The notes: generated from the letters alone by a model not told the origin. A stretch of DNA of 63,979 nucleotides, filler included, from Hausera hauseri (GCA_046269625.1; 11 parts of 11 records of this genome joined end to end with filler, not necessarily neighbours in it); one strand, 5' to 3'; counted from the first letter of the whole stretch, positions 37,478-63,979 are shown. Made by a program: numbers and translations.

Positions 37478-37485
37478 AAAACCTC

Positions 37486-37779: not shown

Positions 37780-37823
37780 GCTCCTCCCCTTCGAAATTTA
37801 CTTAATGAAGCTTCGAAATCTAC

Positions 37824-38465: not shown

Positions 38466-38547
38466 AATCTTGAAAACTTCTCTTACTCATAAATGTAAAA
38501 ATACTTCAGTTAGATTAGCACAGGAATGTAATGCTATGTGCTGATAC

Positions 38548-38673: not shown

Positions 38674-38846
38674 CCCCTCCCCCTAGGAGGGAACCNNNNN
38701 NNNNNNNNNNNNNNNNNNNNNNNNNNNNNNNNNNNNNNNTTAATTAATTAANNNNNNNNNNNNNNNNNNNNNNNNNNNNNNNNNNNNNNNNNNNNAAAAG
38801 TTACTTTTATACGTCATATACTTTCTTTATCTCGTGACTTCTATTT

Positions 38847-40389: not shown

Positions 40390-40587
40390 GTCGATCTGAG
40401 CAATTTTTGGCAAGTGGTTAGAAGAGGACACTTCTACTTACCGGAGAGGCTTGTGGTTATGAATTATTGGTCAATTAATGGGGCGAACAAAGTTTGATCT
40501 GTGACGCTAAATGAGCTCTATAAGATGGCGAGACAGACACGGGAATCTTTCTTATATCTAACCTATGGGTAATATGTAGGAAACGGT
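40390..40587 (+). pseudogene. Possible highly diverged ATG8/LC3-like C-terminal half
   Basis: VDLSNFWQVVRR..SING..*SVTLNELY..ESFLYLTYG*YVGNG compared with LC3 VNMSELIKIIRR..VNG..STPISEVY..GFLYMVYASQETFG. Confidence 0.35.
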
Positions 40588-41399
40588 AACCATTAGGGTT
40601 GAATTTTTACTTTAATTACTAAGGAATTTCTTACCATTACCCTTACTTAATTAGTGGGGTGTCGGACCGACCGTGTGTCGGGACCTGTGCCTATTAATTA
40701 CAGACGCTTATTTAGCTTAATTAGTTACGTGGATAAAATAAAAATTATCTGTTCACGGAAGAAATACTAAAATATATTAAAAATAAATTTAACAATCATA
40801 ACAGTTAACAAAAAACTCACACGAAGACATGATGATCAACATATAATAATATTTTGTATCCTTTTTAGCGTTTTAGTTACGATATTTATAGTAGTTTTCC
40901 CAATGCCACATACGGCCAAAATATGAAAGAGCAATAAAATAAATAAATTGCGCACATACTACTTTAAATAATTATAACAACCGACTATGGCAATATTTCA
41001 GAAGCAATATAATATTCCCGACAGTAATAATTAAGTCCAACAACTGGTGACTTGCTGGTTTTAATCAATTTCAACGGACCGACAGTAATGATGAAATACA
41101 ACAGCTGGTGATTAATCAATAGTACGTGTGCGTTTCTTTATTTCCTACAAGCAGAATAAGGAATAACAAAAATAAAGTTTAACGATCAATCAATATAATA
41201 AGAATACACTTACACGAGGACATAACAACTTTATATGACTGTCCGAGTACAAGAAAACTTTGTGAAAATGTTCAAGCTAACGTCGGTATTTTTACCCATA
41301 AATCACTAGGATAAAATACTCCAAAATTGACATGTACATTAAAATAATTGGTCTACTAACAAAAATATGTTTTCATGATTTTGTTAAGTATAAGATCCA

Positions 41400-42674
41400 T
41401 ACAAAAAGCGTCGGTTTATCAACTTTAAACTTATTGTCTAAGTTAAATGCAACTACAGTCTGAAATTTCTCCTTTTCCCTAGAGTAAGGAATATTATTTA
41501 TTCTTAAAGCATCTTGTGGGGTCTGCTTAACGATTTTTAGTGTCAATCCGATGAATTTGCAATCACTATATATACAAGGTTTTGTAGAACATACGGTTCA
41601 TAAAAAATTACCGTAATATAAAAATTTCATAAAAATTCTGATAAAATATTTCCCAGATATATAAAATTACAAGGGAAATATACCTGCAAGATCACAAAAG
41701 AAAAATTAAATAACCTTTGCACAAAAAGAAACCACGTTTTTATTTATTGTTGGATCTAAGCAGCTTTTATTATAAATCGATACTGTTATTGAACAAAATT
41801 CAATATTGTTATTGAACATCTCCCCCCTCAGATGGTACGTAGTGGTTCATAAGTCAACAAAAAATAATGTGATAAGTTTAAGGTTTAAAGGTCTGAAAAT
41901 TCAGATAAATGAGTTTGGGTTCTGAAACCTCAAACTTACGTATTTACTCTAGTAAAAATAGCTCAAGAAATTAGTTTCCTAGAGCCGGTTATTTTATTTA
42001 GTCTTAAAAGCCGCCTGTGGGGTCGGCTTAAAATCAAATTTAGATATATGTGAATTCGATCACCAGATGGGACACTGGTATCGTTCCCAAATTTTAGATG
42101 ATTTTGAGGTTATACGGTTCTTTTTGACCGTAAATCAATAGGGTCCGTTTTGTTAGATTAATAAAAAGATATTATTACAATATCTATAATTTCTTCTTTT
42201 TAATTTACCAGAATTTACATCTAGGAAAATCAAAAATCAATACTATTCTATAAAGATATAATTAAACTAAAGTCAGTAAATAATCTTTAAAATGCAGACA
42301 AAAAAACAAGAAAACTTACAGGAATAATAACTGACATACATTGTGCAAGAATCAAGCATAAAAAGAATTGTGTGTCCTTTTCAATACAGTGGGTTTATAT
42401 ATCCCCTTTTGAGACAAACGATCAAATTATAATTCCGAATAAATATTTTGTAATATAAAACAATTCACGGCAAATAGATGAAATAAAAACAGACACATGA
42501 AATAGAGACGGACAATTAAATTACAATTAAATGAATTCACAATAAATACGATCAAATAGATTCGAATTAATGTATGCATTAAATAAATGTGATATTGTTT
42601 ACATTGAGAGAACAACATTTTTAAGAGTCTGTAATGTCGTCGTAATGTCGTCAGTCGTCAACAACCCCCTCCTC
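41400..42674 (-). mobile_element. Two successive PPT plus LTR-like units (far ends approximate)
   Basis: On the minus strand TCTGAGGAGGGGGT|TGTTGA (LTR start ~42663) and TCTGAGGGGGGAGA|TGTTCA (start 41818); shared motif CCTAGAG..TCTTAAA..TGTGGGGTC.GCTTAA at ~41478-41530 and ~41978-42031. Confidence 0.6.
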
Positions 42675-42745
42675 AGACAATGCTGTCCGCAGCTTTGCTG
42701 GATAGGTTTCCAGAGTGCCATTATCTAGTCGATAGGTAGATGAAT

Positions 42746-44902
42746 CTAGTAACGCCATTGTCCTTTCTTTTTAAATTTAAGTTTGAGGGTGATTGTTTGC
42801 TCTTTAGGGATTTTCTTCCTTTTTCTTTTCGAATCTGTGATTAGTATTTCGTTGGGTTCAATGATTGGAGTTGATTGGATATTACTAATTGATGGTTGTA
42901 TCGATACTTCTGATCGATTGTCCATATTTGAAGGTTTGGGAAAATTAAGGGATATTTCCAATGGTGTCTTTGTTATAATATTTGTTATTTCTAAATTATT
43001 AGTATCCATAGGTTCATCATGCGATATAGCAGTCTCTTTATCAAATAAAGTCGGAGATTTATCTGTAATTTTAAGCATTATTGATGTGGGATTTACGATT
43101 GATTTTTCACTTTTATATTCTTCCAGAGTATTATACATTTCCAACATAATTAGAGCTTTGTCTTTCGTCCTGGTTGGGTATTTGATATTATTATACTTTA
43201 AAAAGATTTGTTTTTGAGTTAACGTTCTTTTTGGATTTATGTGTTCATTATAGAATAAATCACGTATGCCCATTACTTGATCCATATTAAAAAGGGCTAT
43301 TTGAGAATTAATGTTGAATAGTGTCATCCCTACTATCATCTTTCCCACTAGTTGTTGTCGGATTGTAGGCCAGATTTGATATTGGTCGGCTTGGCCGATT
43401 AAATCTGTTTCTCTTATCCCAGTTATCTGGGTATTATAATTATCTACGCGATCTCGTGGAGTGACAAATTGGTCAAAAATAATTTTTCCTTCCAGGTTCA
43501 TTAAGGTGATTTCTATAAGAGTAGCTTCTGAACGAGTGTTTTTCATTAAGTATGCAACATTGATGGATAAAATAATCACTTCATTTTTTGAAACTGTAGA
43601 CACCCTGGAAAAGGAACATCCTTCTTCGAGTTGAGCTTTGCTGGGGAGAGGTAAATTGTAAATAGGTATATCATATTCCGGACGTGGTATTCTTTCACGT
43701 CTAGTCACCTCAATATATAAAATAGGACTAGGTCCTCCAAAAGTTCGTAGCGCGATAGCAACGTTTTTATAGAAACGTTGGTCAAGTCGAATGGTAGTGA
43801 AGGGAATAACATCCATTTGATCCGTCATATTATTTCTATGACTTCTACTTTTCAATTGAAGACTGGCTTTGATAACCGACAAGTAAACGGAGGTTGTTTT
43901 AGTGAATATGTCTATTAAATCAGATAGCAGGGTGGTTGTATTAAGTAGTTTTATAATTAATCCTGCTCTTTGGGTTACCAGATGGCCTTTGAGATTATTG
44001 GGATATAACGTAGCTTTTCCATAATATATATAGTCTTTGTGTTGTGTGGACTCCAAATTAGATGAAATATTGTAGTAGAAGGACTTGGCCCTCTCTACTG
44101 TTTCGGCACCTTCTTGGACTGAAAGAAAACACATCAATAATAACCATGAAAATCTTTTTAAAATAATCTTATGATAGGTTGTATAAGGCTTTATAGCCTG
44201 AATTTTTTTACAATTACGTTTATTTTGGTAGGTCGCTAAGATTTTCGCAGCCTCATTTTTTATATGTGTACACATACACAGTGTAACATATGTTAACGGT
44301 TGAAGTTGCCGTTTGTATTTTGGAAGCTTCTCAGCTTGAGGAGACGCACTTATTTCACTAACCTTATCATTTTGGGAATCCTCTCTTAATAATTTTAGTT
44401 CTTGCATTATTTTTCGGGCTTTATGCCTTCTACGTCTTATTCTAGAGCAATAAATTATTAAGGGCACTATTATGACTGCCAATATTAAAACTGTGCACAA
44501 TACAATTAGTGTCCATAAATATATATTTGAATTATTTTTGTTACTTTGTGTGGTTAATATTTGTGAATTTTTTGTAGTAGTTATGATAATTTGTTTTAAC
44601 GTTTTCACCATACGATAAATCATCTGTAATTACTGTCCGTCTTCGTCTAATTCTGTCATGATAACTTTATAGTTGGTATTGGCCTTTAAAAATATACAAG
44701 CTGATGTAGGCTCATTTGGGGTTATAATTCCTTCACTAATCATTCCTTCATAAAGAAAGCACTCAAATTTTATGTTTGTATTCTTCAGGTTTGATACCGT
44801 AATAATGAGAGAATGTGGCATCGACTGTATAGTTATATCCAGTTTTCTATTAATGTTCATAACCTCAATCAGTTTCTGTGTCGTTAAGCTTGTGATAGAA
44901 GT
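42746..44902 (-). CDS. Probable retroelement accessory polyprotein: FN3-like ectodomain fragment, TM helix and inactive REX4/ISG20-like DEDDh exonuclease
   Basis: 44630-44860 is in frame with the 625-aa ORF across one stop; TM LWTLIVLCTVLILAVIIVPLIIYC followed by RRRRHK; exonuclease-like IEITLMNLEGKIIFDQFVTPRDRVDNYNTQITGIRETDL..LVGKMIVG, with ExoI DxE replaced by SINVAY; PPT 70 nt after the stop. Confidence 0.75.
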
Positions 44903-45248
44903 NNNNNNNNNNNNNNNNNNNNNNNNNNNNNNNNNNNNNNNNNNNNTTAATTAATTAANNNNNNNNNNNNNNNNNNNNNNNNNNNNNNNNNNNNNNNNNN
45001 NNGGCATGTTGCAAATTAGAAACCTCATCTCAATCAAATTCAAGAAAACCACAAATTGCAGCCCCCTCAAAGTAATCATGAAGTCAAATTCGCTTCCTTT
45101 TATTTAAACGTTTAGAAATAATAACTGAAGATTTAAAATAGATTTATGGTAGGACTGTGGGTTAGACAGCTTTACCGAGTGCCTAGGAAAAAAAGACAAT
45201 ATTTAAATATCTATTAATATTGCTCCATGTATCTAAACTCTCCTTCAG

Positions 45249-45692
45249 GGTCCTCACATAGCTTCAGTGACCCTGGCAGCGTATGAGTGTGGGTCCACAG
45301 ACTTCCCAGAGCCCCCTTACCTGGACCAGATTGTCTGTCCTAATGATGGAGGGTTGGAGGGCAGCATCTCGATCTTCTCCATCACGTCAAAGGTCCACCT
45401 GGAGGCCTGCATGTGGGTGAGTAGTACTTTGAGTGAAGATACAGCTGAAAGAAGACCATGTTGCTGCCTGACAGAAAACACTTTTATACCTGCTGTTATT
45501 ATCTTTGTGTGAGAAATAAACATAAATCAACCTATACTGACTGAAGCTGTGTATGTTCAGGGTGCGGGCACTGCCATCGGAGAGCTGCCTCCGTATTTCA
45601 TGGCGAGAGCCGCTCGTCAGTCAGGAGCTGATCCAGATGATGAGGAATACGAGGAATTTGAGGAGATGCTCAAGCAGGCCGAGGGCGCGCAG
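45249..45692 (+). CDS. vmp1: Vacuole membrane protein 1, two internal exons
   Basis: Exons 45249-45416 and 45561-45692: [29 protein letters not shown]|[37 protein letters not shown]. Confidence 0.95.
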
Positions 45693-47361
45693 GTCAATTT
45701 TTAAATACTCAAACAGCAACAAAAATTAGCATTAGCATTCATTTCTTATGTCTTTTACTCTGTTAACAACTTTTTCATTCATTATTTGTCAGAGACACAT
45801 TTTATTGCAATCGCAAAAATTCATTTAAAAAAGAAAACCCTCTCTAAAAAGCTAAATATATAACTTTAAAATCACAAGAGAGTTTAAAATCTAGGAATAA
45901 CCAGCTCTCAAAAAATTTACAAATAGGGCAAAAAATAAGACCAAACCAGAGAACCATTTTTTACATTGCAGTCGTATTTTTTCTCTTCACATTTAAAATA
46001 TTACCTTTGGGGCCAGGTAGAATATTAACAAGGACCAGATTGGGCCCGCAGGCCTTGGATGTGACACATGCACACTAGATTAACTAATGTCAGTTTTGGA
46101 GACACACTGGAATGAGGGGTTGTAGAGACAAATATATGTGTCCAGATGAAGGATGTAAATATCATTGGGTTCTGTAACGCTTGGTGGACAATACAACACT
46201 CCTCCTTGGTGTCCTCTGTCCTGAGTCAGAACCTTCATAATGGAGCAGATTACCAACTACACTTCTTATAACTAAGTTATAAGGAAATAAGTTATCGAGG
46301 GTTCTCTGATTTTAGATAACACTTTAGTGCAAAAGTGAGTGACACGACACAATAAGTAATTCAACTCTGTGAATTAAATTTGATCCATCATAAATGTGAT
46401 CGTTTATTTACAGAGATCAAAACAGAATCACGAGTTAACAACTTAATTGTGAATGATCAACTTCCTATAAAGTTTAGAATTAACAATAATTCAACAAAGC
46501 TTAATTCTGTTAATACGACAACTTTATATGATAACAGCAAACGTCAGCTTAAATGTTATACAACCAGAATGCTTACAGGTACATAAACTTAGAGTTTGGG
46601 CAGGGCAGCTAGATCAGGAGGAAAGACTGAAAATAGGAGGATTAGTTCCTGCTACTTTTACTTTATCAAGTTTGAGTTAACCAGAACGGCACAGACGTCT
46701 TCCGCTGGACTTCTGCCGGACCCAGGTACGCTCATAACAGGTCAGCCTTTACCTTGAGATGACGGGTGGTCACTTTCAGGCATCAGGAAGGGTTCACCGC
46801 TTCAGCAAGGGGTCTCTGTCAGGATTCTCTCCCTTTTACCGCCTCCTGGAGTGTTGCTGTGGTTCAGTGTCTCCTGCGGTCTGCCTCAGCCGAGGGAAGA
46901 GGAAAAGCAACTCCGGTCCTCTTTTCAAAATAAAAGCACTTCTTCTAGAAGAGGAAAGTACTTCTACAAGCTATGGTGGTCCACAATGGATGTTGTCGTG
47001 GTCCCGGCAGTGAGAACGACTCGTTGGCATGTGAGTGAGTTCTCCTGGCCAGAATTTCCTGTGTTTCCCTTAGAGAGAAACCAGCTGTCTCGTGTTGACA
47101 CGGGACTGTTGCTTTCAGAACTAACGGTCGGGACAGAAATCGGTTAGTACATGAAGAGCAAGCCTTTCCTAATTTCTGCCCCCCATCTGGGGGGTAGTTT
47201 TTAGAGATTTGCCCAGGCGCCTCTTGGAGCCTAAACAAAGATTAGACGAGAGTTGAAAGTGTCACGTTGAACTGTTGTCTTCAAAGCTGCAAGGCTGAAT
47301 CACTGTTATATTGAGCAGAAAATGCGACTTCAGCTCCAAACACTTTATGCTGATTATTCAG

Positions 47362-49697
47362 GCACATTGGGAGCAGGGCTGATGGAATTGGCCCTCCACA
47401 GAAGGTCCTCTTCCCTTCAGAGCAGCTCAGCCTGAAGTGGACTGATGGTCACGGTGTAGGTGCCGGGCTGAAAAACATGGGGAACACATGCTACCTGAAT
47501 TCAGTCCTGCAGTGTCTCACCCACACCTCACCAATAGCCAATTACATGCTGTCAGGACAGCCCTCCATGACATGTAAACTACTGTTCCTTTCACCCTCTA
47601 GTCCAAATCAGACTAACTGAGGGATCAAATTGGCTTTTATTCTGTGTTCCGATGAACAAATATTTATTACATATGTTTTTGCTTTTCATCTTCTTGTGCA
47701 TGTGTTGAACATGTGGTCCAGGCTCAAAGCCAGGGTTCTGCATGATGTGCATCATGCAAAAACACATCAAAAGTGTTTTTGCAAAGTCAGGGAGCGTCAT
47801 TGAGCCCATTGAGGTTCTGAGTGAACTTGACAGTAAGTGGATATTTACTGTGACAAACAGCTGAGGCTGAGTGTTGCAATAAGACACAGCAGCTGCTGTG
47901 TGGCTGTTTTTGCTTCAATGGAAAGTTTTTTGTTTTCCTCTTATTGTGACACAAGTTTGATCTTAGATTTTAAAGTTTTGATGTTTGGTTGTCCTGAAGT
48001 TGAACAATGTTTCTCCTCTCGCAGACATCGCAAAACACTTCCAGTACACACACCAGGAGGATGCACATGAGTTCCTGCAGCACACAGTGCAAGCCCTGCA
48101 CCAGTCCTGCCTGCCTGAATCATTGTGAGTCTGATCAGAAACGTCTTCTACTCTCAGTTTACACTAAATACTAGATGTCAGGGAAACCTTAGTCACCTTT
48201 AGCTTCTTCTGGACTGATGAAACTAGACTTGAATTGTGTGTTGAATAAAGTATTCAGTTGGGTCACCACTGTGGTTCAAAATGTTTCTTCTCTATGTTAG
48301 TGACGGGTGGGAGAGTGAAACCCAGCCAACATTTATCCATCAAGTGTTTAAAGGAAGTCTTCGGTCCAGAGGTAAATGATTCACTTGAAACTGTTTTATT
48401 GATCTTTTTCTTCCATGTGAGGTGTCGTAATGTTTCCCAGTGTTTTTCAACTCAAATCTGAACACTTGTATTTATCAGTGTGCTGTTTAAACTGCAATTC
48501 CATCTCTGACACGTTTGAAGCATTTCTGGATCTTCCTCTGGACATTGAAGTAATTCAAGCTTCACATTCTGTCATTTCTGACTGTCTGTGTTTCTGCTGA
48601 CATGGTATAAATGTGTCCCATTTGATCCGAGCTCCTTTAACAGAAGCAAATGTTTCTCTGCATGTAGAGAGCTTCCAGTGTGTCTTCTTGTCTGGAGCAG
48701 TTTGTGACGCCTGAAGAGCTGGAGGGCTACAAGTGCTCCGAGTAAGCCCCCAAAAAACCCACCTGAAGCAGTCGTTTAGGTTTGTGTACCTATCTGTCAC
48801 GAAGCCACGTCCTTGTTTGAATTTGTTGTTTTTCAGGTGCAAAGAAAAAGCGTCAGCCTTGAAGACAGTCACAGTAGACAGGCTGCCCAACGTGCTGACC
48901 CTGCCCCTGAAAAGATTTGATTGTCATGGAGATAAAGTCTCAAAGGTACTGTCACACACATCATATAATGGAAGATTTGTTTTACACACATGTCAAATGT
49001 CTCTAATGTGGGAACTATTCAATGGACTGATGGAGTGTTTTGTGTTCACCAGCGTGTGAACTTCCCTGAAAGCATCAACATACGACCGTTCACATCAGAA
49101 CCTGCAGGTGACCCACAAACCTACAGCCTGTACGCCGTACTGGTCCACTCTGGCTCCACGAGCTCTGAAGGCCACTATTTCTGTTATGTCAAGGTACTGC
49201 ACCGCTGCAACACACTCAGCTCATCTATTAGATTACTGCTGCTTATTACATCACTAGATTACAAGTGAGTGCAGCTGAGATGAAGTAAAGATTGTGACAG
49301 ACAGAAGGTGTTCACACACTTACCTGGAAACACACAGAGCAATAAAATGTCAACAAACACAAAGTCACAGGATCACATTTGGATCTGATTTACATGTGAA
49401 CACATTTCAACCAGCTGCTGTTTAGGCTTCACTTTTCAAGGTTTTTCTTGTATTTCTCACCTGAAAAGCAAGTGTGACTCTAAAAGTATGTGTGTTGTGT
49501 TGCAGGCGAGCAGCGGCCAGTGGTACAAGATGAATGACTCCTCTGTATCTGTGAGGAACATCCAGAGGGTCCTGAAGAAAAAGGCCTACGTTCTGTTCTA
49601 CATCCAGATCAGCCAACTCTCACACATTGGGTGTGAGACACACGCATCCGAGGGTCTTCACACGCTCTCACGCCACACTCCCACTTTCTCACGCTGA
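47362..49697 (+). CDS. USP42/USP17-like ubiquitin C-terminal hydrolase, nine exons
   Basis: [72 protein letters not shown]; canonical splice sites; catalytic Cys/His/Asp present. Confidence 0.93.
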
Positions 49698-51020
49698 AAA
49701 CTGACCAACGTCAAAAACTCAACTCCGGTCCACTTTTTTACTATAAAATTTATTTATATTAATCCAGTCCACGTATTCACTGCAACCCGTGATGTTACAA
49801 ACAGGTGGATGCCAGGTTGTTATCCAGTCTGGAGTTTTGCTCCAACCATCCATCTACCTGTAAACAGCGGCTCTGTGGAGCGGCAGAGCAGGAAGCTCGG
49901 TGAGCTCCCCTCCACAATTAAAAACAGGAAAGGTGAGCGGGTAAAGTTAGCAAACATGTTAAAAGAAAGGAGAAAGAGATGGGTGGAGCAGATAAACTAT
50001 GAGGGGGAAAAGAGAGAAGTTTTTGCAAGTTGTGAATAAACAGATATTATCTGTGATGGAGGAGGCGAGGTAAAGCTGAAGTCAGCCAGAGACACACAGA
50101 CCAGCAGCAGCTTAGCAGCTCTGTCTACATCCATCATCCTGGTTCTATGTGTTTCTGAATGTGTTCATGGCTCAGAATATTAAACACAGCAGATCAGAAA
50201 TGATACCAGCAGAAATCTTTAATCAACTTTAATAACAAACTAAAATCAGTTCATACTGATTGACCTGAAAAATACATTTTATTTATTGTAAAAAAAAACA
50301 TATCAATAAATCTGATTATTTCCTCTACATTAATATATGGCTATGTTTTTAACCAGCTCAAGAAAAATACCTTACAGTTATAAATGAATCTTCTGGGTGT
50401 TGTGTTCAGAGGGAGGACCATTTGCACCATAGTTACTATAAGTGAGGTCTTTGATCTTTTCAATGTCCTCACTTCATCTGAAAACCTGCTGTTCTTTACT
50501 AGTCAGGTTTAGAGGTATGATGTGCATTAAGATTTGGTTCAGGTTAGAGTTAACTATAGACCAGTAATGGTTAATTTTAGGGAAAATGTCTGGGTTAGGC
50601 ATAAATACGGTTACAAAAATGAATGGAAGTCAATACAAAGTCTTCAGTTTTGTGTAAGCACAAAGATGTGTGTGTGTCTTAGCGCTGTCAGAGAGGTGGA
50701 AGATGCTAGTTAGCTAAGTGCTAACAAGCATGTTGGTAATGCATGTGATCATTGAGGACCAGCAGGAGGAGATATTTATGTATTTTTCATCATGGTGTCT
50801 CACAATGTCACTTTTTTTCACATTAAACATTTATTGTTTGTTACAGATATATAAGGATCAGCTGTAAACAGGATTCCACCTCTTATTTATCCACCGGGAA
50901 CAACATGAAATGAGACCTACNNNNNNNNNNNNNNNNNNNNNNNNNNNNNNNNNNNNNNNNNNNNTTAATTAATTAANNNNNNNNNNNNNNNNNNNNNNNN
51001 NNNNNNNNNNNNNNNNNNNN

Positions 51021-51713
51021 AAGGCTAAAACGGAACAGTGCGTAGGACAAATCATGGAAGTACGAGATGCGGCAATGTATTTCTAGTATTTACAGACAGA
51101 CGAAGACAAGGAACAACATGACAAGAATCTAGTACTACTAAGTGGGATAATAACCAATGTCCCAGAGCCTAAACACCCGGTTGGAAGACCTAGGAAGGCC
51201 CGAGAAGGGGTTGACTATAATGGAATATTAATTAGATAGCTGAGACAGATGTCGATTCCCACCTTTAGCACCGACAATGAAGAGTTAAACGAGTTAATGA
51301 AGAATTTAATACCTATCGTAAATTATTCAACCCTTCGAGGAGATACATTAGACACTAAAGAAAAGGGGATATTTAACGCAGCTAGGACAATGAAAAATTC
51401 GCGTTTCAAGCTGTCGAAAAGCGGACTAACTGACCACGCAGTAGTTGAGAAGATTATGGTGGAAAATACGATAGAAGAGTTGAGAAAAGTATTATTGTAC
51501 TTGGCAATTAAGACAAATCCAAATCGAGAAAATCAACTAAATCGAGCTACAAGTTTGGCGCGAAAAGCATCTAGGAAGCTTCCGTGCGAAATAAGTTGGC
51601 CAAAGTTGTTTGATAAGGAAGAAGACAAAAAGAAAAATAGTAATAATGAACTCGGGGACATCATACGGAACTTGACGACATCGGATAATAACAGCCGAAA
51701 GAACGAATCTAAT
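51021..51713 (+). pseudogene. Leader region in frame with the glycoprotein, containing an AT-hook-like motif
   Basis: One frame with two stops from the contig start; KHPVGRPRK at ~51171-51197. Confidence 0.45.
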
Positions 51714-53653
51714 TGGTTAATCAGTTTGCTCACCATAATAATGTTGATAAAACAGATGGGCGCCGTCATCGTTTACGATTGCGATAGATTTAAGCTTAGA
51801 CAAAAATACTCACAAATGGATTTAGAAGCATGTAAAGATGCCAGACCACATAAATTGGAAACAAAGGAGAAGAGTTATTTCCTATACCAACAACAAGAGT
51901 TGATGTCTTTGGATGGTATGGAATGTATGCTGAGATGATCTCGTAGCATTTTACTGCGGGCTAATGCACGGGCACTCCTCAATAGTTAAACCTACAACCC
52001 TCCGATCCCAATTAATTTGGAAAGATAACACTGAAATCAGGCCAGATAAACCGTAAGATTGAAATGGGATACTATAAAACCAGAAATGCAGCCCGGAAAG
52101 ATAATCAGAGCATATAAAATAGTAGTTGGAAGGCTAGATATGCATAATAGGCACTGTAGCAGAGCAGAATACGACAACGGAAAAGGACTGGAAGCAAACA
52201 TAGTAGTAGTAGAAGACCTTTACGAATCGGAGATGCGAGTACAAAAAGTGATGTTCCATAGCGTTATTAAGCTGTATACCGAGAACTAAAAATGTCACAT
52301 ATAGGACGGAACCTGTACATTCAGAAGTTCCATTGTCATATGGGAACCGCCCACTGGAAAAGGCTGTAATTTTATTAAAATTAAGGAATTGAAATTTACT
52401 GAAACAACTGGGACACGATACGTAGACAAATTCGACATCAGTTCAAGAGCACGTGAAGATGTATCAGAGCATTATATACCTACTATATTGATCTCTGATC
52501 AGCATGGATTGAAATTTATAAAAAAATGATTTCACGTTGCGAAGTAGTAATGTTCACCACTAATTACAAAGCGTTCTTCGTAGCAGAAACGGAAATAAAC
52601 GCGAAAATATACAACTTAGAAAAGCAAGATATTAGAATTGACGATTACTTGAAAAACGGAGACGATTACTTTTATTATAAAGGATAAGTCGGGATAGCCG
52701 AACTATATTACAAAATGATAACTAATGACTACCAATTAGATACGGAAATTATGAGGACAAAATTAGCTCTTATTTATGCAAACCCGGAGTTTACCTTACC
52801 AATTATTCCCATGAGAGAAGGAATTTTTGGTTGAGTTACTGGCGAAGTCCTACTGACATATGAATGCGAGAAAAGAGTTGTACCAATCAACGTCGAATAA
52901 AAACGATGCATACAAGAACTTCCTGTAATCTACCGGAATACTCCACGTCTAGCCATGCCCCTCACTAGAGTGTTGCTGGATAATGCAACACAACCTACAA
53001 TCTTAAAGGATTGCAAAACAAGTTTGGGTAAACCAATGTTCAGACGTAGCAAAACGGAATGGGTTTGCTTACCCAATGGAGGTGTTACCATCATTCCTAA
53101 AAAGTTGACTGGAACTAATTTAGCAAAAGGAATTACTGATGACAAGTTTCAGGATGCATTTTAAAAGGGTATTTACAGGCCTAAAGAAATCGAAGCTTTT
53201 CGACAATTTCTCGCTTTTCCACGACCGCGAAAACACAAATTAAATCAAGCTATGGCATAAGTAGTCGACGATATCCGATACCAGACTAAATGGGAATCCC
53301 TGCTTGGTGCAAACCATTACCAACGGGTAACTACATAGATACTCTACAAAATATGGGGAAGATTTTTAATTTTTGGACAAGCCGCATCGGGATTCTTAGC
53401 AGTTGGTTTTTTGGTACCACTAGTAAAGGCGGTAATTCAAGCAATCATAATTGGGTACGAAATATTCACATTAACAGGATTTTTATGCAAGATCTTAACC
53501 GCAATTATTACACCATTCGGCAAAATGCTTAAAGCCTATGAAGAAAATCGATGGAAGAATGACGTTGAACGACATGTCGGCAGTCATAACTATAAACGAC
53601 GAGCAAGGCCCACATTTCTACTAAAACGGAACCCCAGAATCAGAAAAAATTAA
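51714..53653 (+). pseudogene. Class III (chuvirus/herpes gB-like) envelope glycoprotein, decayed
   Basis: Signal WLISLLTIIMLIKQMGA then VIVYDC..C..LYQQ..C..YCG..H; GTC..IVIWE..C; G*VTGEVLLTYEC..CIQELPVIYRN..PLTRVL..DC..PMF..W; GIY..FLAFP; C-terminal hydrophobic helices. Confidence 0.85.
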
Positions 53654-55585
53654 GGCATTTGTTAGGCTTATGTAGATATTATGCCACTTACGCACCAGAC
53701 AATTCGAAAATAAATGCTCCATTATATCGGCTATTGACAAAAGGTATCAAATGGAAATATCAGATGGACCGATGTCGAAAAGAAAGCGTTCGATGAAATA
53801 AAGAAAATTATAACAAGTGAACCAGTGTTGAGATACCCCGATTTCAGTTTGCCATTTATAATTAAAACACGACGCAAGTAAAAAGGGAATTGGTTACGTA
53901 TTGGCTCAGAAACCAGAAGATGATGAAATGGAAAACCCAATTGCATATGGAGGACGATCACTTAAGAAAGCTGAGAAAAACTATTCAATTACTAAACTTG
54001 AGGCACTAGCCGTAAAAGAAGCTTTAAGGCATCTTAATGTCTATGTCTATGGGCAGAAAATTATTATAGTTACCGATCATAAGGCTATTACAACGTTAAA
54101 GAAACGAGCTAATAACCAAATATGTAGGGTAAATCGGTGGATCGAAGGAATCTCCAGATACAATATTTAATTCCAACATAAACCCGGAAGCAAACATCGA
54201 CGCAGACTCTTTATCAAGACTTAAAACAAAGACAAGTACAATTACGACCACGAAGAAAGCTTAAGTCGAAGAATTAATAGAACGACAACGGGCTTTAACA
54301 CTAAATAAAACAACTAAAATTTCTTCAGAACAAGCTAAAGATAAAGTTATCCATCAAATAGTCAAATTTTCCACGCAAAGTGAAATGCCAAAAGGACGTC
54401 AGCTAAGGAAACACTTAGAGAGACACGGACATAAATATTATGCATCGAATCAAGATAATATTCTATATTACGAACGAAAGGAACGGAAACTAGTAGTTAT
54501 TCCAAAAGGATTACGAATGGAAGTCTAATGGCCAAACATGATTCACATTTAGCTGGACATATGTCATGGAAGAAAACATTAGAAAGGAGATTGAATAAGT
54601 ACTACTGGCCAAGCGTTTATATCGATGTAAAACTGTGTAGACGCTTGTGAAGTCAGTGCGACAAAACAAAAGAAAGGGAAAAATTATGTAGCGGAATTAA
54701 AACCGATTAACGTACCAGATAGACCTATGCAAGCCATGTCTATGGATATAGTAGGACCTCTACCTACAACTCACAAAAATAACAAATATATTCTGACATG
54801 CGTAGACTGTCTAACACACTTCGTTGAATTAATAGCACTAATCGACCAGAAAGCAAAAACTTTAGCAGATGCAGTAGTAAGAAGGATTATCTGTAGATAC
54901 GGACCCTTCAATCGAATATTAACCGATAAAGGAAGGAATTTTACGAGTGAATTATTTTATAGAATTTCTAAACTTTTCGACATCGAACGATTAACAACTA
55001 CCGCATATCATCCTCATTGCAACGGAATTGTCAAACATATGAATGCAACCGTTCTGCGAGTCCTATCGACCGTAGCCGCGAAGGACCAAAAAGACTGGGA
55101 AGAATTCTTAGAAGGAACACAATTTGCGATCAATACTACCCCGCATTCCGCCACAGGATTTACACTATTTTATGATGTATGGACGTGAAGCGATATTACC
55201 TACGGACTTAGGAATGACTCCGTATCACGCAAATCCGGAAGACATAAAACCAAACTTCCCAGAAGTCGTACAAATGTTATTACAAAAATGTTGGAATATA
55301 GCTAAGACGCTTATCCTTGAGTATCAAGAGCAGTTTAAGAAACAATATGATAAGAAGGCAAAACCTCACGATTTAGAAAAGGGAAACTGAGTCTACGTGC
55401 ACTACCCGGTCGAAAAAAGGGTGCGTCGTTAAAGCTTACTCGTACCGGACGAGAGCCTGACGAAATTATTAGAACCACATAAACCACTGTTTATATTAAT
55501 AAAAATGGCAAAGAAGAGGTAATATCCATACAGAGAGTCGTTAAAACAGAAATAAGACTAGAAAGACGTTATAATTTGCGATCCG
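53630..55585 (+). mobile_element. Ty3/Gypsy pol remnant: RT thumb/connection, RNase H and integrase (RT core absent)
   Basis: LRHLLGLCRYY, WTDVEKKAFDEIK..PVLRYPDFSLPF, DASKKGIGYVLAQ, AEKNYSITKLEALA, TDHK, H..GH..YYWP, MDIVGPLP, TDKGRNF, AYHPHCNG, RRYNLRS. Confidence 0.95.
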
Positions 55586-55649
55586 CAGATCAGAGTTTAA
55601 ACCGAAAACAGGACAAAAGGAAAAAAAAAAGACATCCAATATAAACAAT

Positions 55650-56915
55650 AGGCCAATATCTTACGTACAGCTAATCTTAGCATTATGGTTAATCGCCTGT
55701 TATGTTCCAAAGACCCAAGCGCAATGGTGGAATGATAGCGAATCCAGTTTGACGGATGTATATGGAATTAGTAAAAGCGGAAGGGAAGATAAAATTAGAT
55801 AGGAACAACAACACTTGGAAGGACGAAAATATGTGAAAAATTTAAAAATAATAAAGCCTATGACTCAGATTGGAAAAAGCCCCATATTTGCTTCAAAGGT
55901 GACAAAGATACTAAATAGTATATGTAAATTCGTATAAAGTTTACGAATCAAAATAAAGAAAGGATAAAAATTGTGAGTTTGGATATGGAATTTATAAAAA
56001 ATATTGCGAACTAGATTTCGGACGAATATACAAATACATAATACATATGTATTATTACCCTTATGAGATTATTCAAGTGGAGGTACGACCACAGGTCGAA
56101 ATAGCTATGCCCAAGCAAGCCCTAGCGGATAGCGTGAAACTATCCGACATAGTTCAAAGTACTGACCCCATAATTAGATCATTGGATGAAAATATAATTG
56201 AAGTTTCCAAGGATTTGGAACACCCATATATCCAGATTAAAACTGGGACAAGACTAACCGAATCCTACCAGATCTCGGTTCGATTTATACCATCTAAAGA
56301 AACAAATCCGCCAGCAGGATATTTCGCTATCAGTCGACAAAACCCAAAACCGTGCTGTAAAATACCCCAATGGTACAGTTTCGAGATACAGTTCGACCTA
56401 TGTAAGATCAGACCATATCAGCCAAGCACATACCTAAGAGGATACCGTTTAAGAAGACAAAATTGGAAGATTCCAATCAGAACGACGACAACGATTAGTA
56501 CTACTATTAAAATCGTCACGACGAGGAAAAGACCCGGAAAGCAACCGGAAAGTATTCCTATTAGATACTTATTGCAGCGAAATAATATAATATTCTTTGT
56601 CGAAGAGAAATTAAACTATGATGTAGAGATAAACTGTCGAACCCTGTATAGTAAACAAAAAGCAACACTTGCAAGAAACACGCAGACAGAGCATATAATA
56701 GAAATTAATGCAGTAGGAAAGCATAATCAAACAATCACCCTACATACTTTAACGGAAAATGTTTACCTAGAACAAAAAAATCAAAACATAGACGATATAA
56801 TTACTACATATATGACAACACAGAAACCAATTGAATTAACAACTTTACCTATTGTATAAATGTTCGGAGTGTCAGGGTTCGTCTTGATAATAATAATAGC
56901 GTCACTTTATTGCTA
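55650..56915 (+). pseudogene. Type-I membrane protein in the env position, apparently unrelated to gB
   Basis: Signal-like YVQLILALWLIACYVPKTQA; ectodomain ORF 56047-56859 with Thr-rich stalks; TM in frame after one stop (MFGVSGFVLIIIIASLYC). Confidence 0.6.
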
Positions 56916-57109
56916 AAAATTGTAAAAAACAGCGCAAAAATAAGGATAAAGAAATAATGGTGGTATACCAGAGTGATTTATATGATAAAATAATCTGGAA
57001 ATTACAGGTCGGGTTATTCTGTCATCAGACAGTGAAAATATTTCATTTCGAAATACGAATATGTCTTAAGAATAATTTTATTTACTTTTATTTCAGATTG
57101 GTAAGTAAA

Positions 57110-57769
57110 ATGGCAAGTCGAAAGAAAAGCTGTGACCAGACAGACATCGACGAATTTTTACAGTCAAACGCGATGATAATAACACCCAACTCCAAAGCTA
57201 CATATCGGCAAATCCATGTAGAACTGCAGAATAGAACATCAGTGGAATATAATCAGATGGACAAAATCCCTAACAACTTGAAGGAGATCGTGGAAGAAAA
57301 CAGAGTAAATCGATTATACGCCATAAGAAACAACGAAGGTGCCCGATCCTACAACCTAAAAAAACTAATAAAATCCGAGATAGGACCTCCATGTAGTGTG
57401 TATATACATCTAGCTGAAGGAGAAATTTATTACAGATTAGATGGACAGAACTGGAACTCAAACAAAGGACGGCAATACAAATTCAGCACTTTCAAGCTGG
57501 ATGGTAAAAGCTTATACGAGACCGAAGCAGAATTAAGGATCTCATACTTAGCCGTAAAATTAATGTTGGAAATCACCTGTGAAGAAGTTTCAACCTTACT
57601 TCTGCCCCCTCTAATATACCACCAGTACCCAACAGAGGATCAAATAAAACGACACTTTGGTTCATATAAGCTAGTACAAAAGAATGGAACATTCGCATCA
57701 TTTCAACGAATTACGGAAAAGGGGATGACGGAAATTCTATTCCCATCGAAATCTCCATTCGAGTCATAA
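57110..57769 (+). CDS. Retroelement accessory ORF of unknown function
   Basis: Open frame MASRKKS..; preceded by the strong acceptor TTTACTTTTATTTCAG (57081-57096). Confidence 0.55.
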   Translation: MASRKKSCDQTDIDEFLQSNAMIITPNSKATYRQIHVELQNRTSVEYNQMDKIPNNLKEIVEENRVNRLYAIRNNEGARSYNLKKLIKSEIGPPCSVYIHLAEGEIYYRLDGQNWNSNKGRQYKFSTFKLDGKSLYETEAELRISYLAVKLMLEITCEEVSTLLLPPLIYHQYPTEDQIKRHFGSYKLVQKNGTFASFQRITEKGMTEILFPSKSPFES

Positions 57770-58526
57770 ATGGAGTAGAAGTTTAGTCTAGAATAATCAT
57801 ACATCAGAAAAGAGTAAGGGAGACATTTGCAGAGATAATGTAAAGCAGAAAAGGGGATTTAACCAATGGAAAGGACGCCAAAATTGTGGAATTAGAAATA
57901 AATCACTGTTTATATGGGTGCATGATTGCAGGATTTCAAACCCAGGAACAAATTGACAAACTGAGAGTAAACCGTGAAAAAATAGAAGGAATACGTAAAT
58001 TTTGGACCCACCCCGAAATTAAAGAAAGAATGGATAAGGTGAACCGACCAGTTCCTGTGATTATAACGACCCAATTTAGAGCAATGATACAGATCATGAA
58101 CGGAACCCACTATAGAATTAATCGACAGCGAATCGTAGAACACAAGGGATAATAATATGCAAATTATGGTGTTAAACCAAGAGAATATTGTTCAACATAA
58201 ATCAAGCAGCGTTACGTATGGATTTCAAGCACATATAAAGACAAAAAATTTGAGGAAAGTCATCAAGGAACATCAACCAAAAAGCACAAACTGAGAAACC
58301 CATGCGAAGAAAAGAAAACGAAATTAGTATTCGGGTTCCTAAAGAAAAGAGATAATGGATCATCCAAAATTGGGCAAGCTGAAAAACGTTCTATGAAAGA
58401 AACCACCGAAAGTATACTAAAGAAAATTAAAGAAGTTAACGTTCTAAAAAGGAAAAAGAAAGTCTACGAAAAACAACCACATAGACGAATCAAAACGACG
58501 AAACAGAATGGCCCAGAATCTTAATC

Positions 58527-59042
58527 ATGGCAGAGTATGTAAGTCATGGAAAGATCAAAGAAGCAGTATTTTATATCTATACAATGCCAATATTGGAAAT
58601 ACAGAAAAACGCCTACGCTCCAATCGACCCGAAGTTAGGAAGATATTTATCGTCAGTATTCAGATCAAAGATAGGAACTAAAAAGATAACCGTGTCGGTG
58701 GATAACCAAGCTAGGATAGAAGTAAAAGAACAGTATAAGAAAATGGGAATCCCGGATTTAGATGCTCAACAAGTAGTAGAATGGACCCTTATAGCCGTTA
58801 ACGGCGACCCCAGAAAAAGCTCCATAGACCCTAAACAGAAGCAGTTGCACAAATACCTCTATAAGAATTTCAAAGGATTGTTGTTCCAAGAGATAACATG
58901 GATTACGGACTGTGATCTAGACAATGATACCAAAAATTTCTGCCCTGTATGTGAAGCAAACTTATGGCAGGATTATGTGGTGCTACGAATAGGAATTGTT
59001 GACACCGACACTGTCGAGATTGTTTGGAACAGTGGACGTTGA
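58527..59042 (+). CDS. Retroelement accessory ORF with CxxC, function unknown
   Basis: 171-aa intact frame between integrase and PPT; A-rich codon use like the rest of the element. Confidence 0.55.
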   Translation: MAEYVSHGKIKEAVFYIYTMPILEIQKNAYAPIDPKLGRYLSSVFRSKIGTKKITVSVDNQARIEVKEQYKKMGIPDLDAQQVVEWTLIAVNGDPRKSSIDPKQKQLHKYLYKNFKGLLFQEITWITDCDLDNDTKNFCPVCEANLWQDYVVLRIGIVDTDTVEIVWNSGR

Positions 59043-59440
59043 TTAATGGAAAAACAACATTTCCAGTATGTCAAGCAGAGTGATCTCAGTTGAAATACTT
59101 TCCCCGCGGAGAGAATAATCGCATAGTTGAGATAAAAGCACCTACCGCTTATTACCTGGAACCGAATCCCCAAACTAGTATGCGGGTCAATTCCGAAAAC
59201 GATTTACGAGAAAGGCTAAATGCGTTACAACGCCCAAACGATGGCGCCACCTCTCCTGACGCAATAGGCACATCCAAGGATTTCGCTCAGGGAGGAGAAA
59301 TGTTGTAAATGAGTAGAGGTGTAAAAAAAAAGTATTCACACGCACATAATATTTACATATTGGGGACATTCGTTTAACGAGAACGTTAAACCGAATCTGC
59401 TATTAAGACATTAATTTCAAGTGTAAATTACGTTATATGT

Positions 59441-59649
59441 AGAGGGGAGTGATAAGGGCCACCCTAATATATAACATTTNNNNNNNNNNTGTTAATGAAC
59501 AATAGTTAAATATGACTGTGATTAAATGAACACTTGATTAGGCCCTTCCTCTAATTGAGTGAATGAGTAAATTTATCTATAATAAAAAATCCTTCAAAAT
59601 ATCATGTCTTGATTCTTCCATGGTAAACAATCTACTAGTAATTTCATCA
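59441..59649 (+). mobile_element. PPT and 3' LTR (end approximate)
   Basis: AGAGGGGAG then TGATAAGG at 59450; AATAAA at 59581; candidate end ..ATCA at 59649. Confidence 0.6.
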
Positions 59650-60029
59650 TTTATTGTGGTTTAATTCATTCTACTTTTGAAAATTCTCCTCTACCTCTAT
59701 CTTGAATTTGAATGAGTTGGCCACAAAGTTCCACATATTCAGTTCTTTGGATATTCATACATGAAACTGTTCTGTCTGGTGACGCTTGTGGTTCGTCTAC
59801 ATTAATTAATTCGTTATTCTTAATTTCTATGCTCACTGGATTATACCAATCAGTTTGTATTCCATATTCTAGTAATAAATCATCATCNNNNNNNNNNNNN
59901 NNNNNNNNNNNNNNNNNNNNNNNNNNNNNNNTTAATTAATTAANNNNNNNNNNNNNNNNNNNNNNNNNNNNNNNNNNNNNNNNNNNNCTCTTTGTTTTAT
60001 TATAACAAAGTCGAGTAACATAATTTACA

Positions 60030-62944
60030 TATCCGGACGTTCATTCATACCGATACCTGAAGCTCTAAAGCATTCTTATGCGGTAGTGAATGTAAAAAAC
60101 ATGAACAATGATTACTGTTTTATTTACAGTCTTCTGGCGGTATTAAAATATGACGAAGTGGAGAGACATAGTGAACCTTGTCCAAAACAGTATCGGCAGT
60201 ATTTTTCCGAATTGCAATTCGACGAAAACTGCATGCCGATAAAACTAAAAGCCATTCCAACATTTAAACGGCGTAATCCGATGCTGTCAATCAACGTGTT
60301 CCGGTAACATACAATAGTTGAAATACCGGAAGATAAAGAAATTTACAAGAATCCACATGTGAATATAATATATCGAAGTCCGAACCCGAATGGACGCACA
60401 GTAAATTTTTTATTGTAGGAGCAGGCAGAAAATTTTCATTACGTGGCCGTAACAATTTTGGACCGACTGTTGAACATGGATTACTATCAGTTTGCCTAAA
60501 ACCAAATACGTTGTAAATAGTGTTTTACACGTCTGCATGGCTTCAGATCAGAAACCACATGGGAAAAACATATGACGCTCTGCAGACATAATGCATTATG
60601 AACAACAATGTACGTCATGCCAGTCAAAAAGGAGCTGCGATTTAGTGACTGGTCTAAAACGGACAGTACAACATATATGATATATGCTACTATTGAGGCA
60701 ATCCTACTACAGCACGACGTATGCGATCAGAAACATGTTCCAATTGCCGTCAGAATGTTGGTTGTATCAATAAAATCTTCAGGTCAACCTGCATGTTTCA
60801 CGCCTGGAACTGTATGCGTGATTCCCTGCACCATATAGAAATAATAGGTGAATCGGAATAACAGCACAAAACCCCTGATTTGGACAGATGAAGATGAACG
60901 CCTGACGTTTGCAATCACCGTTTGATGCGCAGGAACGATACGTACCGAATCATGACCACTTTACCACTCTATATTTGGGAGCAGCATGTAATTCATGCAA
61001 TTTAACGAGACGTTTGCGGCCATTCCTACCAATGATCTTTCATGATTTTCTAGGTTATGATTGTCACCATATACTGAAGTGGGCCATCAACGGATTTCTG
61101 CACTGGGAACTGTCCATAATCTCAATAACAATGGAGAAGTATCTGTCCCTGTCAGCACGCATAAACCGGTTTTATGTACGCTTCCATGATTCATTGCCAT
61201 TTCTGAATGAATCATTGGCGAAGTTGGTAAATGCCTTGCTGGATGTGCCGATAACCTTAAAACTGTTCTTCACACACATTTCACGCAGCAAAGGCATATT
61301 TCCATATGACTTTGCACCACCATATGAGCGACTCTGGACAGCAGAGGAATTACCGCCGCGATGGACAGGCATCACAGAAGCTGAATATCGGAGTTCACAA
61401 AAATCTTGGACAGAGCTCGTCTGTAGAAACATGTTGGATTACATACTTCAATATGTGAAACTGAACGTGTACTTATTGGCCGATGCGTTTCAGGCGTTTC
61501 GGGCGGAAGCGTTGGACAAAGATAGGCTGGAGCCGATCAACTTTTATTCCATACAGGGAATAAATTTGGCGTCAGCTCTAATGTCACTGGGTCGAGACAT
61601 TGAGCTTCATCAAGACCAGGAAATGTACCTGCGGTTTGATGTTGGTATTCGCGGGGGCATGAAATTTGTCAACAAGCATCAGGTCAGTGCTACCGATACC
61701 ACATTACTGTTGTATATTGATATTAATAACCTGCACGGCTGGGCGCTTTCACAACCCTTGCCGTACGGTTCATTCGAATGGGTTATCGACAGATAAGATC
61801 TAAACGACATAATGGTCAACCTGGCACAAGCACACATGGCAGGCTAGTCGGACATCTGATGTAGGTCGATCCTGAGATACCAGATGAGCTGCATGACGTT
61901 TTGGACGATTTTCCGGTCGCACCATTTAACCAATGTCCACCAGGCTCAAAAGTGAAGAAACTGCTCATAACGAATGAACCGAGGCTGAATTACCTGGTCC
62001 ATTGGCGTCTGCTACAGTTATACATGTAGTTCGGTGTTCGCGTTGCACAGTTGATTGTGCAATCCGATTTGCTCAGGCGCCCATATTTAAGGCTTACATA
62101 GATGGAAATTCGAAGAAACGAGCCGCAGCTTGTACAAAGTTCGAAAAGGATTATTACGAACTGAAAACAATTTCATGTACTGAAAAACAGTGGAGAATCT
62201 GAAAAAGCGGCTCAATGTACGCGTATGCAACAACGAAAAGCGGCTGGTTACGTATACCAGCAAGGCACAGTTTCGGCGGTCATTGCACATTGTCGATGGA
62301 TTGGTTGCCATGTTGTTAAACAGAGAAGAAGTCGTTTTGGACCGGCCAAGTTACATTGGACAAGTGGTATTGAACCTGAGGAAGTTGCGAATGTATAAGC
62401 TACAGTATCTAGACTTGACACGTTACCGGCAAATGTTTGACGGCTATGACATTAGAATAATTGTCCGTGACACAGACAGTTCTTTACTGCGGCTGGAAAA
62501 AGTAAATCGCGAACAGCAACGGCAGCAAATGCAATCAGATGGATTACTGGACACGTCCAACTATCCACCGGATCATCCGTTGTACAACAGCGCGATCCCT
62601 AACAAAATCGGCTGCTTCAAGGATGAAAGTGAATGTACGGTTCAGTATCGTGAATGGGTATTTCTACGGCCACAATGTTATAGCCTTTTCACTGATGGTG
62701 GACCGGAAATGCGAGCCAAAGAAGTTCAGTTGGTCCACACTGAAAGAAACCACGGTGATTATTGTCGTATCTATGAAAAAAAGGACAATCAAAGGCTGTT
62801 ATGTCACAAACGACCATCCGATCGATTGAGAACCAATTGTATACGGTGAACAATACAAAAGTCGCTTTATCATGCCATGATAATAAGCGTAAGTTGGTGG
62901 GGTGGAATAAGAGTTGGTCGTAAGGACATTGGCGTTTGAAATAA
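60030..62944 (+). pseudogene. Second Polinton/adintovirus protein-primed DNA polymerase B, decayed
   Basis: SFIPIP..VVNVKN..DYCFIYSLLA, HDHFT..GAACNSCNL, FHDFLGYDCH, KGIFPYD, IRGG, YIDINNLHG, RDTDS, DTSNYP, IGCFKDE. Confidence 0.95.
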
Positions 62945-63977: not shown

Positions 63978-63979
63978 TT

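Follow-up and report, generated by a model that had tools for sequence, protein, structure and literature searches.

Introduction

Ty3/gypsy elements of the errantivirus type in which a glycoprotein B (gB)-type envelope gene (env) precedes pol have been reported for the Platyhelminthes, the Bryozoa and the Nematoda (Chary and Hayashi, PMC13524379), and that survey describes the mechanism of transmission as elusive for most elements. Here, we analyse a 63,979-nucleotide stretch of assembled DNA (the window), composed of 12 unrelated contigs separated by N44-TTAATTAATTAA-N44 spacers, in which two contigs appear to carry the 3' part of long terminal repeat (LTR) elements: contig A (38796-44902, minus strand) and contig B (51021-59887, plus strand). 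Judged by its gene content, contig B represents a gB-type errantivirus in decay, with env ahead of pol as in the gag-env-pol layout known from flatworms. Behind its pol lies a module composed of a second surface protein gene, predicted to encode fibronectin type III (FN3) repeats, and an accessory gene for an ISG20-like exonuclease that appears to have lost its catalytic acids; a module with the same order and a homologous accessory gene is found in contig A.

The gB-type GAG-ENV-POL errantiviruses resemble the contig B element in the position of env and in being multicopy, but neither a second surface protein nor a 3' accessory gene is described for them in the parts of the survey available, and its main text, to the same extent, makes no mention of fibronectin, exonuclease, splicing or accessory genes (PMC13524379). 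The LTR search of that survey reached 3 kb past pol and left eight of the nine listed flatworm elements without a called LTR (PMC13524379), and the contig B LTR lies 3.66 kb past pol; such modules could therefore have escaped view, for instance in Schmidtea, although long LTRs or 5' regions would also explain the blanks.

The first-pass annotation of the window had assumed that ordinary Gypsy elements lack extra genes of this kind, yet both rotifer and planarian elements carry accessory open reading frames (ORFs) (PMC5408684, PMC6431247). The planarian Burro/GYPSM1 elements have an env with mononegavirus-like matches between gag and pol, thus ahead of pol as in contig B; they also contain many accessory domains and ORFs and have been proposed to be proviruses that meddle with host systems (PMC6431247). 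The extras named in the available portion of that work comprise RING, Smc, MATH, BIR, ankyrin, BCL2, SUMO-like, dUTPase and midasin domains, with no FN3 membrane protein or exonuclease among them (PMC6431247). The Burro env lies in frame in a gag-to-integrase polyprotein and the internal region reaches up to 25 kb. The contig B copy has frame breaks and an internal deletion and is truncated at 8.5 kb; its LTR looks far shorter than that of Burro. In bdelloid rotifers, the ORF3s of Juno and Vesta provide an exonuclease-fold ORF downstream of pol, as in the module described here; these ORF3s reportedly use spliced messages for their expression, and small transmembrane (TM) ORF3s are described as being of unknown origin (PMC5408684). 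The Juno and Vesta exonucleases, however, are given there as RNase D-like DEDDy enzymes with intact invariant residues and without a TM segment (PMC5408684), whereas the domain reported here is ISG20/REXO4-like, has apparently lost its acids, and is paired with an FN3 membrane gene in addition to an env. Insect elements of the MDG1 group with sORF1 and sORF2 are similar in having accessory ORFs that include a membrane protein for cell-to-cell transfer, but their sORF2 is a short fusogen-like protein of env-less elements (PMC11952523), and the protein considered here is a multidomain protein of 479 residues beside a gB-type env.

The gB-type GAG-ENV-POL errantiviruses, the accessory load of Burro, the rotifer exonuclease and TM ORF3s and the insect sORF2 are all already known. 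In the literature searched, we found no precedent for an env-bearing element that has, behind pol, a further surface protein made of FN3 repeats, coupled to a seemingly dead ISG20-like gene. The literature listings and abstracts searched mention neither an FN3 protein nor a dead ISG20 for LTR elements; Repbase reports and Grohme et al. (2018) may describe ORFs downstream in Burro. We assign a probability of roughly 0.45 to a reading of the contig B organization in which the gB-type protein would serve as fusogen, the FN3 protein as its attachment partner, and the pseudonuclease as an RNA shield or antagonist.

Results

Organization of the two elements

Contigs A and B occur as exactly matching pieces in a public run, X1, which may be the source sample; the cover of both contigs by related (sibling) contigs of X1 is therefore informative on copy state but does not constitute independent support. 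The first-pass annotation had proposed a 3' layout common to the two contigs, formed by a type-I membrane protein, an acceptor-like site, extra coding DNA, a polypurine tract (PPT) and an LTR starting with TG, and we recovered this layout in both, with every motif in the place assigned to it. The features of contig B are as follows.

51720-53650, plus: env of the gB/Monjiviricetes type (class III), full-length but broken, ahead of pol (Pfam PF24664)
53614-55640, plus: broken pol remnant with reverse transcriptase (RT) thumb/connection, gypsy-type RNase H and integrase
55650-57000, plus: broken type-I membrane protein with signal peptide, three predicted FN3 domains, Ser/Thr (S/T) stalks, TM segment and YxxI tail
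57086-57096, plus: acceptor-like TTTTATTTCAG; the accessory ATG follows 14 nt later, at 57110
57110-58152, plus: accessory gene (domain N and putative pseudo-exonuclease), homologous to 44118-43117 of contig A
58201-59042, plus: further coding pieces of 107 and 185 residues, the last one MATH/TRAF-like by eye only
59289-59476, plus: PPT (59289-59300) and putative 176-bp 3' LTR (TGTT...AACA), with dense sibling-contig cover

Contig A presents the following features, in the order in which they are read.

44633-44902, minus: membrane-proximal piece of an ectodomain, beta-rich and with an FN3-like sequence pattern, cut by the contig end
44279-44629, minus: S/T-rich stalk, TM helix (44518-44447) and basic tail ending in YxxL (44296-44279)
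44119-44278, minus: AT-rich spacer ending in acceptor-like TTTTCTTTCAG (at 44119), open in the frame of the membrane protein
43580-44118, minus: accessory domain N, homologous to 57110-57680 of contig B
43117-43579, minus: ISG20/REXO4-like DEDDh exonuclease domain, seemingly without catalytic acids (PDB and Pfam matches)
42746-43116, minus: low-complexity linker, basic C-terminus (KRKRKK, resembling a nuclear localization signal by eye) and stop
42663-42674, minus: PPT (42674-42665) and LTR start TGTTG at 42663, read from the motifs

The distance from the TM segment to the acceptor is 328 nt in contig A and 183 nt in contig B, and that from the acceptor to the PPT is 1445 and 2193 nt, respectively. 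Acceptors of this strength are expected 0.20 (A) and 0.15 (B) times per whole 3' region, with one observed in each, and a PPT followed by TGT is expected 0.15 and 0.4 times per contig, with two observed in A and one in B. No single motif is compelling by these counts, and the weight of the comparison hence rests on the common order of the motifs. A PPT followed by an LTR start with TG is seen in both contigs, and in contig B it is accompanied by a matching AACA end. This LTR, which had been extended to position 59649, more likely starts with TGTTG at 59301 and closes at the AACA of 59476 (176 bp), just before a 10-N gap. No paired LTR repeats were found inside either contig; the 5' ends of both elements fall beyond the contig limits.

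Two further observations concern the contig A LTR. At 41748-41829 on the minus strand, a second PPT (41829-41819), located 830 nt downstream of the first, is followed by TGTTC...AATAAA...CCAACA, which may represent a 71-bp LTR; it could also be that a 916-bp LTR begins at 42663 and has its true end here. The depth of siblings is not uniform over this stretch (262, 90, 652, 1382, 11). Behind the LTR start, also on the minus strand (42300-42410), TATATAAA at 42401 is followed by TCAGT and by a GTAAGT donor-like site, an order of promoter, leader and donor that would be expected if the LTR drives spliced RNAs.

A gB-type env and a pol remnant precede the module in contig B

The env of contig B matches Pfam PF24664 (profile length 653) with an E-value of 1.7e-33 over profile positions 269-603 and of 0.0025 over positions 8-227, and an uninterrupted piece of it attains an E-value of 4.6e-9. 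It has a signal sequence and a C-terminal TM segment, lies ahead of pol and, by eye, presents the same motif and cysteine order as the six Schmidtea C1a sequences in the supplement of PMC13524379. By this layout and likeness, the host is probably a flatworm. The pol remnant matches RT_RNaseH (E 5.9e-29), RT_RNaseH_2 and rve (E 1e-13) in this order, and the initial assignment of contig B to Ty3/gypsy is upheld by the presence of a gypsy-type RNase H and an integrase in pol order. The 27 relatives of the integrase all contain rve, many with gypsy RT and RNase H (best identity 44%), and no env domain is listed for any of these 27 sequences, which were searched up to 2000 residues.

Neither a protease nor the RT core was seen in this copy, and the end of env (53600-53650) abuts the RT thumb directly, which we read from the sequence as an internal deletion or as a non-autonomous copy or family. 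With regard to gag, the 700 nt of coding DNA before env, where the contig starts, have no notable Pfam match. The membrane protein behind pol had been regarded as standing in for a known fusogen; given that a gB-type env of full length already precedes pol in contig B, this protein is better described as an addition, a second surface protein encoded where env usually sits, than as a substitute.

The second surface protein is predicted to contain FN3 repeats

An exhaustive HMMER search of 1.84 billion representatives returned two homologues of the contig B membrane ORF, P0028 (479 residues, 36% identity) and P0029 (189 residues), both of them single-member ENA clusters, and a word-indexed protein search returned no relatives of the ectodomain. 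P0028 matches contig B from the signal peptide onward (tblastn E 6e-45 and 1e-11) and is uninterrupted, with a signal peptide, three beta domains, S/T stalks, four N-glycosylation sequons, a TM segment at residues 429-447 and a YxxI tail. The members of this B family show 36-46% identity and the same architecture, the tail of P0029 also ends in YxxI, and domains 1 and 2 of P0028 are internal repeats (p 2e-4).

An AlphaFold model of P0028 (md42c590c9bd0), built on an alignment of three sequences, places this protein among FN3-repeat proteins and FN3-bearing receptors, which account for all 40 PDB matches listed by Foldseek. Fibronectin 10-12 is the best of them (E 8e-10), and others include gp130 D4-6, Tie2 and contactins. 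Its viral fold neighbours are FN3/Ig-bearing phage proteins (E 3e-6 or worse), and no class I-III fusogen is found among the neighbours listed. Aligned singly with VIA-align, domains 1 and 3 match FN3/Ig sandwiches with Z-scores of 7-8.6 and a root-mean-square deviation of 2.3-3.0 Å; for the FN3 matches the values are 7-8.5 and 2.3-2.9 Å over 78-87 residues. Three tandem FN3 domains are, in sum, a good prediction for the B family, held with low-to-moderate confidence.

The predicted fold of the B family agrees with the FN3-like character originally attributed to both ectodomains. Compared with the two homologues, the strand motif quoted for contig B spans a gap of some ten residues. The same attribution did not gain comparable ground for contig A, where it comes to a match to Pfam Tor_FN3_1st short of the cut-off (E 0.045-0.08) and to an hhalign E-value of 0.064 against domain 3 of the B family, in an alignment with two common cysteines ahead of an L-x-x-x-T-x-Y strand. 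The contig A piece spans 90 residues before one in-frame stop (44632-44630), and its sequence suggests an FN3 fold; it falls outside the top 12 of the 587 window ORFs ranked by the domain 3 profile, and in the Atlas it scores 0.88 to DUF2194 pieces.

The idea that the FN3-like protein is a non-canonical fusogen replacing env draws on its position in the element and on the fact that the upstream part of the contig A element lies beyond the contig; in the Atlas, moreover, the contig B piece is nearest to flavivirus E and alphavirus E1, with a low score (0.80) that is within the chance range. We consider this idea extremely doubtful, given the full-length gB-type env of contig B, the match of the P0028 model to tandem FN3 proteins, and a hydropathy profile with a single TM segment, in which the ectodomain has no further stretch of strong hydrophobicity.

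A captured receptor ectodomain, working as a decoy, as a signaling modulator or as a block to re-infection on the producing cell, is possible but, on balance, unlikely. The fold neighbours of P0028 include gp130, Tie2, IFNAR, contactins and LAR, and the tails contain tyrosine motifs, among them an L-x-Y-x-x-L in contig A that presumably fits the pattern of an immunoreceptor tyrosine-based inhibitory motif. On the other hand, the searches gave no sequence match to any named host receptor, the FN3 gene occupies the env slot directly behind integrase, and viral glycoproteins, too, are usually sorted through YxxPhi tails. The control of host functions by element-encoded domains has a precedent in the Burro elements (PMC6431247). 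With a fusion protein already present in contig B, the FN3 protein is likely to be a separate cell-attachment protein.

The accessory genes are homologous and encode a predicted pseudonuclease

In the accessory gene of contig B, the frame breaks near 57.7 kb and is further interrupted by stops, and for alignment to contig A its post-acceptor pieces were read with X at the breaks. Smith-Waterman alignment of the two post-acceptor ORFs covers 267-280 residues at 23-24% identity, with z-scores of 8.9 (BLOSUM62), 12.7 (BLOSUM45) and 6.5 (PAM250) and none of 1500 shuffles reaching the observed score with any of the matrices; local-window shuffles agree and the reversed control is negative. Taken separately, the two halves of the alignment yield p-values of 0.005-0.10 (domain N) and 0.001 (exonuclease), and in a first trial of 12 pairs of A and B pieces three had p < 0.05. 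BLASTP between the A and B pieces was not significant, and the DNA of the two modules does not align. Homology of the accessory ORFs implies that the two modules derive from one ancestor, with gene order and pseudonuclease state maintained over deep divergence, and it supports the original proposal of a single lineage with a common 3' module. Together with the multicopy state of contig A, it also lends indirect support to a putative pol upstream of the contig A module. We regard it as very probable, and as far more secure than any single function, that these elements carry the module as a genuine, inherited component.

The exonuclease domain of contig A matches ISG20 (PDB 1wlj, E 6.5e-6), 7yw5 (E 3.6e-4) and Pfam RNase_T (E 0.005), but the D-x-E, D, H, D residues expected of a catalytic DEDDh exonuclease were not found. 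Residues 181-197, where we place motif I on what we take to be the catalytic D11/E13 numbering of ISG20, contain no acidic residue; the motif II Asp of ISG20L2 is aligned to Ile, and motif III is not aligned. In a by-eye register, contig B has S-T-N at the place of motif I, near the frame break, so that in both elements S-x-N follows the first strand, as opposed to the D-x-E of active enzymes. The ISG20-like domain of contig A is, by its sequence, a pseudonuclease with its catalytic acids lost. A direct PDB search with the exonuclease part of contig B gave no match, and its assignment is made through contig A (z 6.8-8.4).

Domain N of contig A, which by eye may be AlkB/oxygenase-like, has no family match in PDB, Pfam or NCBIfam, the word-indexed protein search returned no relatives of the contig A post-acceptor ORF, and no relatives of the module loci were found in scans of viral and metagenome contigs. 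Downstream of the contig B accessory gene, a 171-residue ORF (58527-59039, plus) shows a MATH/TRAF-like pattern by eye, with a CPxC insert; domain searches gave no database match for this MATH reading.

Both modules are multicopy

With an 80% similarity cut-off, X1 provides 5689 contigs covering contig A and 15430 covering contig B, most of them less than 95% alike, and their summed depth is not a copy number. Over the contig A module this depth is 58-2502 (above 400 in 10 of the 11 bins), versus 6-26 in the flank at 40836-41855. The contrast rejects a single-copy host gene, which, if lacking an upstream pol, the first-pass annotation had counted among the outcomes fatal to its proposal. Over the contig B module, depth is 219-1556 versus 4104-25560 over env and pol and 16567 at the LTR, indicating either that a minority of relatives have the module or that the module diverges beyond the 80% cut-off. 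Both modules are multicopy in X1, with many divergent siblings. The contig A module is nearly intact, with one stop in its own frame versus 69 and 68 in the other two, and contig B is decayed.

These data also bear on the notion that the module is host-gene cargo, acquired via template switching and multiplied passively with no role for the element. The decay of the contig B copy and the under-representation of the module among its relatives are what this notion would lead one to expect. We nonetheless consider it improbable: the same gene order occurs in two families that share only 24% identity in their accessory proteins and do not align as DNA, S-x-N replaces D-x-E in both of them (in the by-eye register), the contig A frame is almost free of stops, and the members of the B family retain their architecture at 36-46% identity.

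Expression of the accessory gene

P0028 and P0029 both end just past the tail motif, and the frame ends at the same point in most sibling contigs of B, in our own reading of the contig table. With an acceptor about 100 nt further on and the accessory ATG 14 nt after it, this arrangement is best fitted by separate genes and a spliced second message. In contig A, the first ATG lies 98 codons past the acceptor, so that translation would need a start codon from a leader exon. We consider it likely, from the sequence arrangement, that the accessory gene is expressed by splicing. A donor-like GTAAGT is also present only 4 nt after the contig B acceptor (57096-57106, plus), and might give rise to a micro-exon or let splicing skip ahead to later accessory ORFs.

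The contig A frame had been thought to end between tail and acceptor; instead, 42746-44629 is a single ORF of 627 residues. The open spacer makes a membrane-tethered fusion form possible, and one could go further and propose that the main product is a single fusion of FN3 ectodomain, TM segment and cytoplasmic pseudonuclease that tethers RNA or ribonucleoprotein to the membrane, with the acceptors being incidental or yielding a minor soluble form. Besides the 627-codon ORF, whose spacer is open in only 0.6% of 3000 shuffles, this proposal can appeal to the 37-codon spacer of contig B, which likewise lacks stops and shares its frame with the accessory ATG, as happens in 5.7% of shuffles. The ends of P0028, P0029 and most B siblings after the tail motif argue against it, as do the separate ATG of contig B past its acceptor and the fact that the spacers are the most AT-rich parts of the modules (GC 0.27-0.28), and we hold a fusion as main product to be quite improbable.

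A model with two surface proteins and an RNA-binding accessory factor

In the preferred reading, the gB-type protein would fuse membranes, as expected from its family, and the FN3 protein, encoded in the usual env slot, would be exposed on the surface of particles or of the cell that produces them, being sorted to the budding site by its YxxPhi tail. Binding of the FN3 protein to a host surface or matrix ligand would then allow particles to reach the next cell, or germ or stem cells. A subgenomic RNA spliced to the acceptor would direct synthesis of a soluble pseudonuclease, which may bind rather than cut RNA, either shielding the RNA ends of the element or competing with a host antiviral or silencing nuclease. 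Herpesviruses rely for entry on gB plus separate receptor-binding glycoproteins, and complex retroviruses express spliced 3' accessory genes. The likeness to both, with fusogen and attachment on two proteins and accessory genes between the env slot and the LTR, is drawn as an analogy only.

Several observations weigh against this reading. The P0028 model is weak overall, with a mean predicted local distance difference test (pLDDT) of 46.8, about 60-65 in domain 2, and a predicted template modeling score of 0.24; Z-scores near 8 are common among beta-sandwiches, and the top row of the VIA-align comparison is a designed Ig protein; and Pfam fn3 matches P0029 with an E-value of 0.12 only. The similarity of the contig A ectodomain to domain 3 of the B family is not significant (shuffle p 0.10-0.7). 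P0028 and P0029 may share the assembly of the window, in which case they would represent no independent host. Each acceptor taken alone is weak evidence, the contig A ORF has neither a nearby ATG nor a closed spacer and may yield a fused product, and the contig B module is thinly covered. Finally, a decoy or signaling role fits the anatomy of the FN3 protein equally well.

If the model is correct, a receptor-like second surface protein beside a gB-type fusogen becomes a concrete candidate for the cell-targeting step outside insects, and the pair provides a testable parallel to the herpesvirus-style division of labor. Two families, at 24% identity, have kept a seemingly dead ISG20-like nuclease, and this points to an RNA-binding or anti-silencing factor encoded by the element. 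A broader proposal, which we put forward only tentatively, is that flatworm gB-type errantiviruses combine two-glycoprotein entry, by a class III fusogen and a triple-FN3 attachment protein, with a spliced and possibly membrane-tethered pseudo-ISG20 antagonist of host RNA defense; the organization of complex retroviruses would then have been reached independently in Ty3/gypsy, and may lie unnoticed behind pol in planarian laboratory species. Were the Schmidtea errantiviruses to have the same module behind pol, the ideas of a cell-targeting pair and of an RNA-binding factor could both be tested by RNA interference in an established model animal.

Other features of the window

The contig between A and B contains a piece of a ubiquitin-protease gene (Pfam UCH), and that at 34370-38695 is bacterial, with a tail-specific protease S41 and, by eye, greA- and purH-like ORFs, which indicates a mixed assembly (animal and bacterial). 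Broken pieces of a Polinton/adintovirus-like DNA polymerase B were recognized by eye at 9615-14390 and 59988-63979; the two pieces tried had no Pfam match at E 0.01. Within contig A, a very high-copy repeat at 39408-40427 (summed depth 7000-15000), with short ORFs on both strands, is unrelated to the module, and an Asn/Asp-rich ORF of 305 codons without a Pfam match (38838-39755, plus) lies before the repeat region. Near a contig end, positions 4100-4468 (plus) encode an IAP-type C3HC4 RING (Pfam zf-C3HC4_3, E 2e-11), which may belong to a host gene or be an accessory domain of another element.

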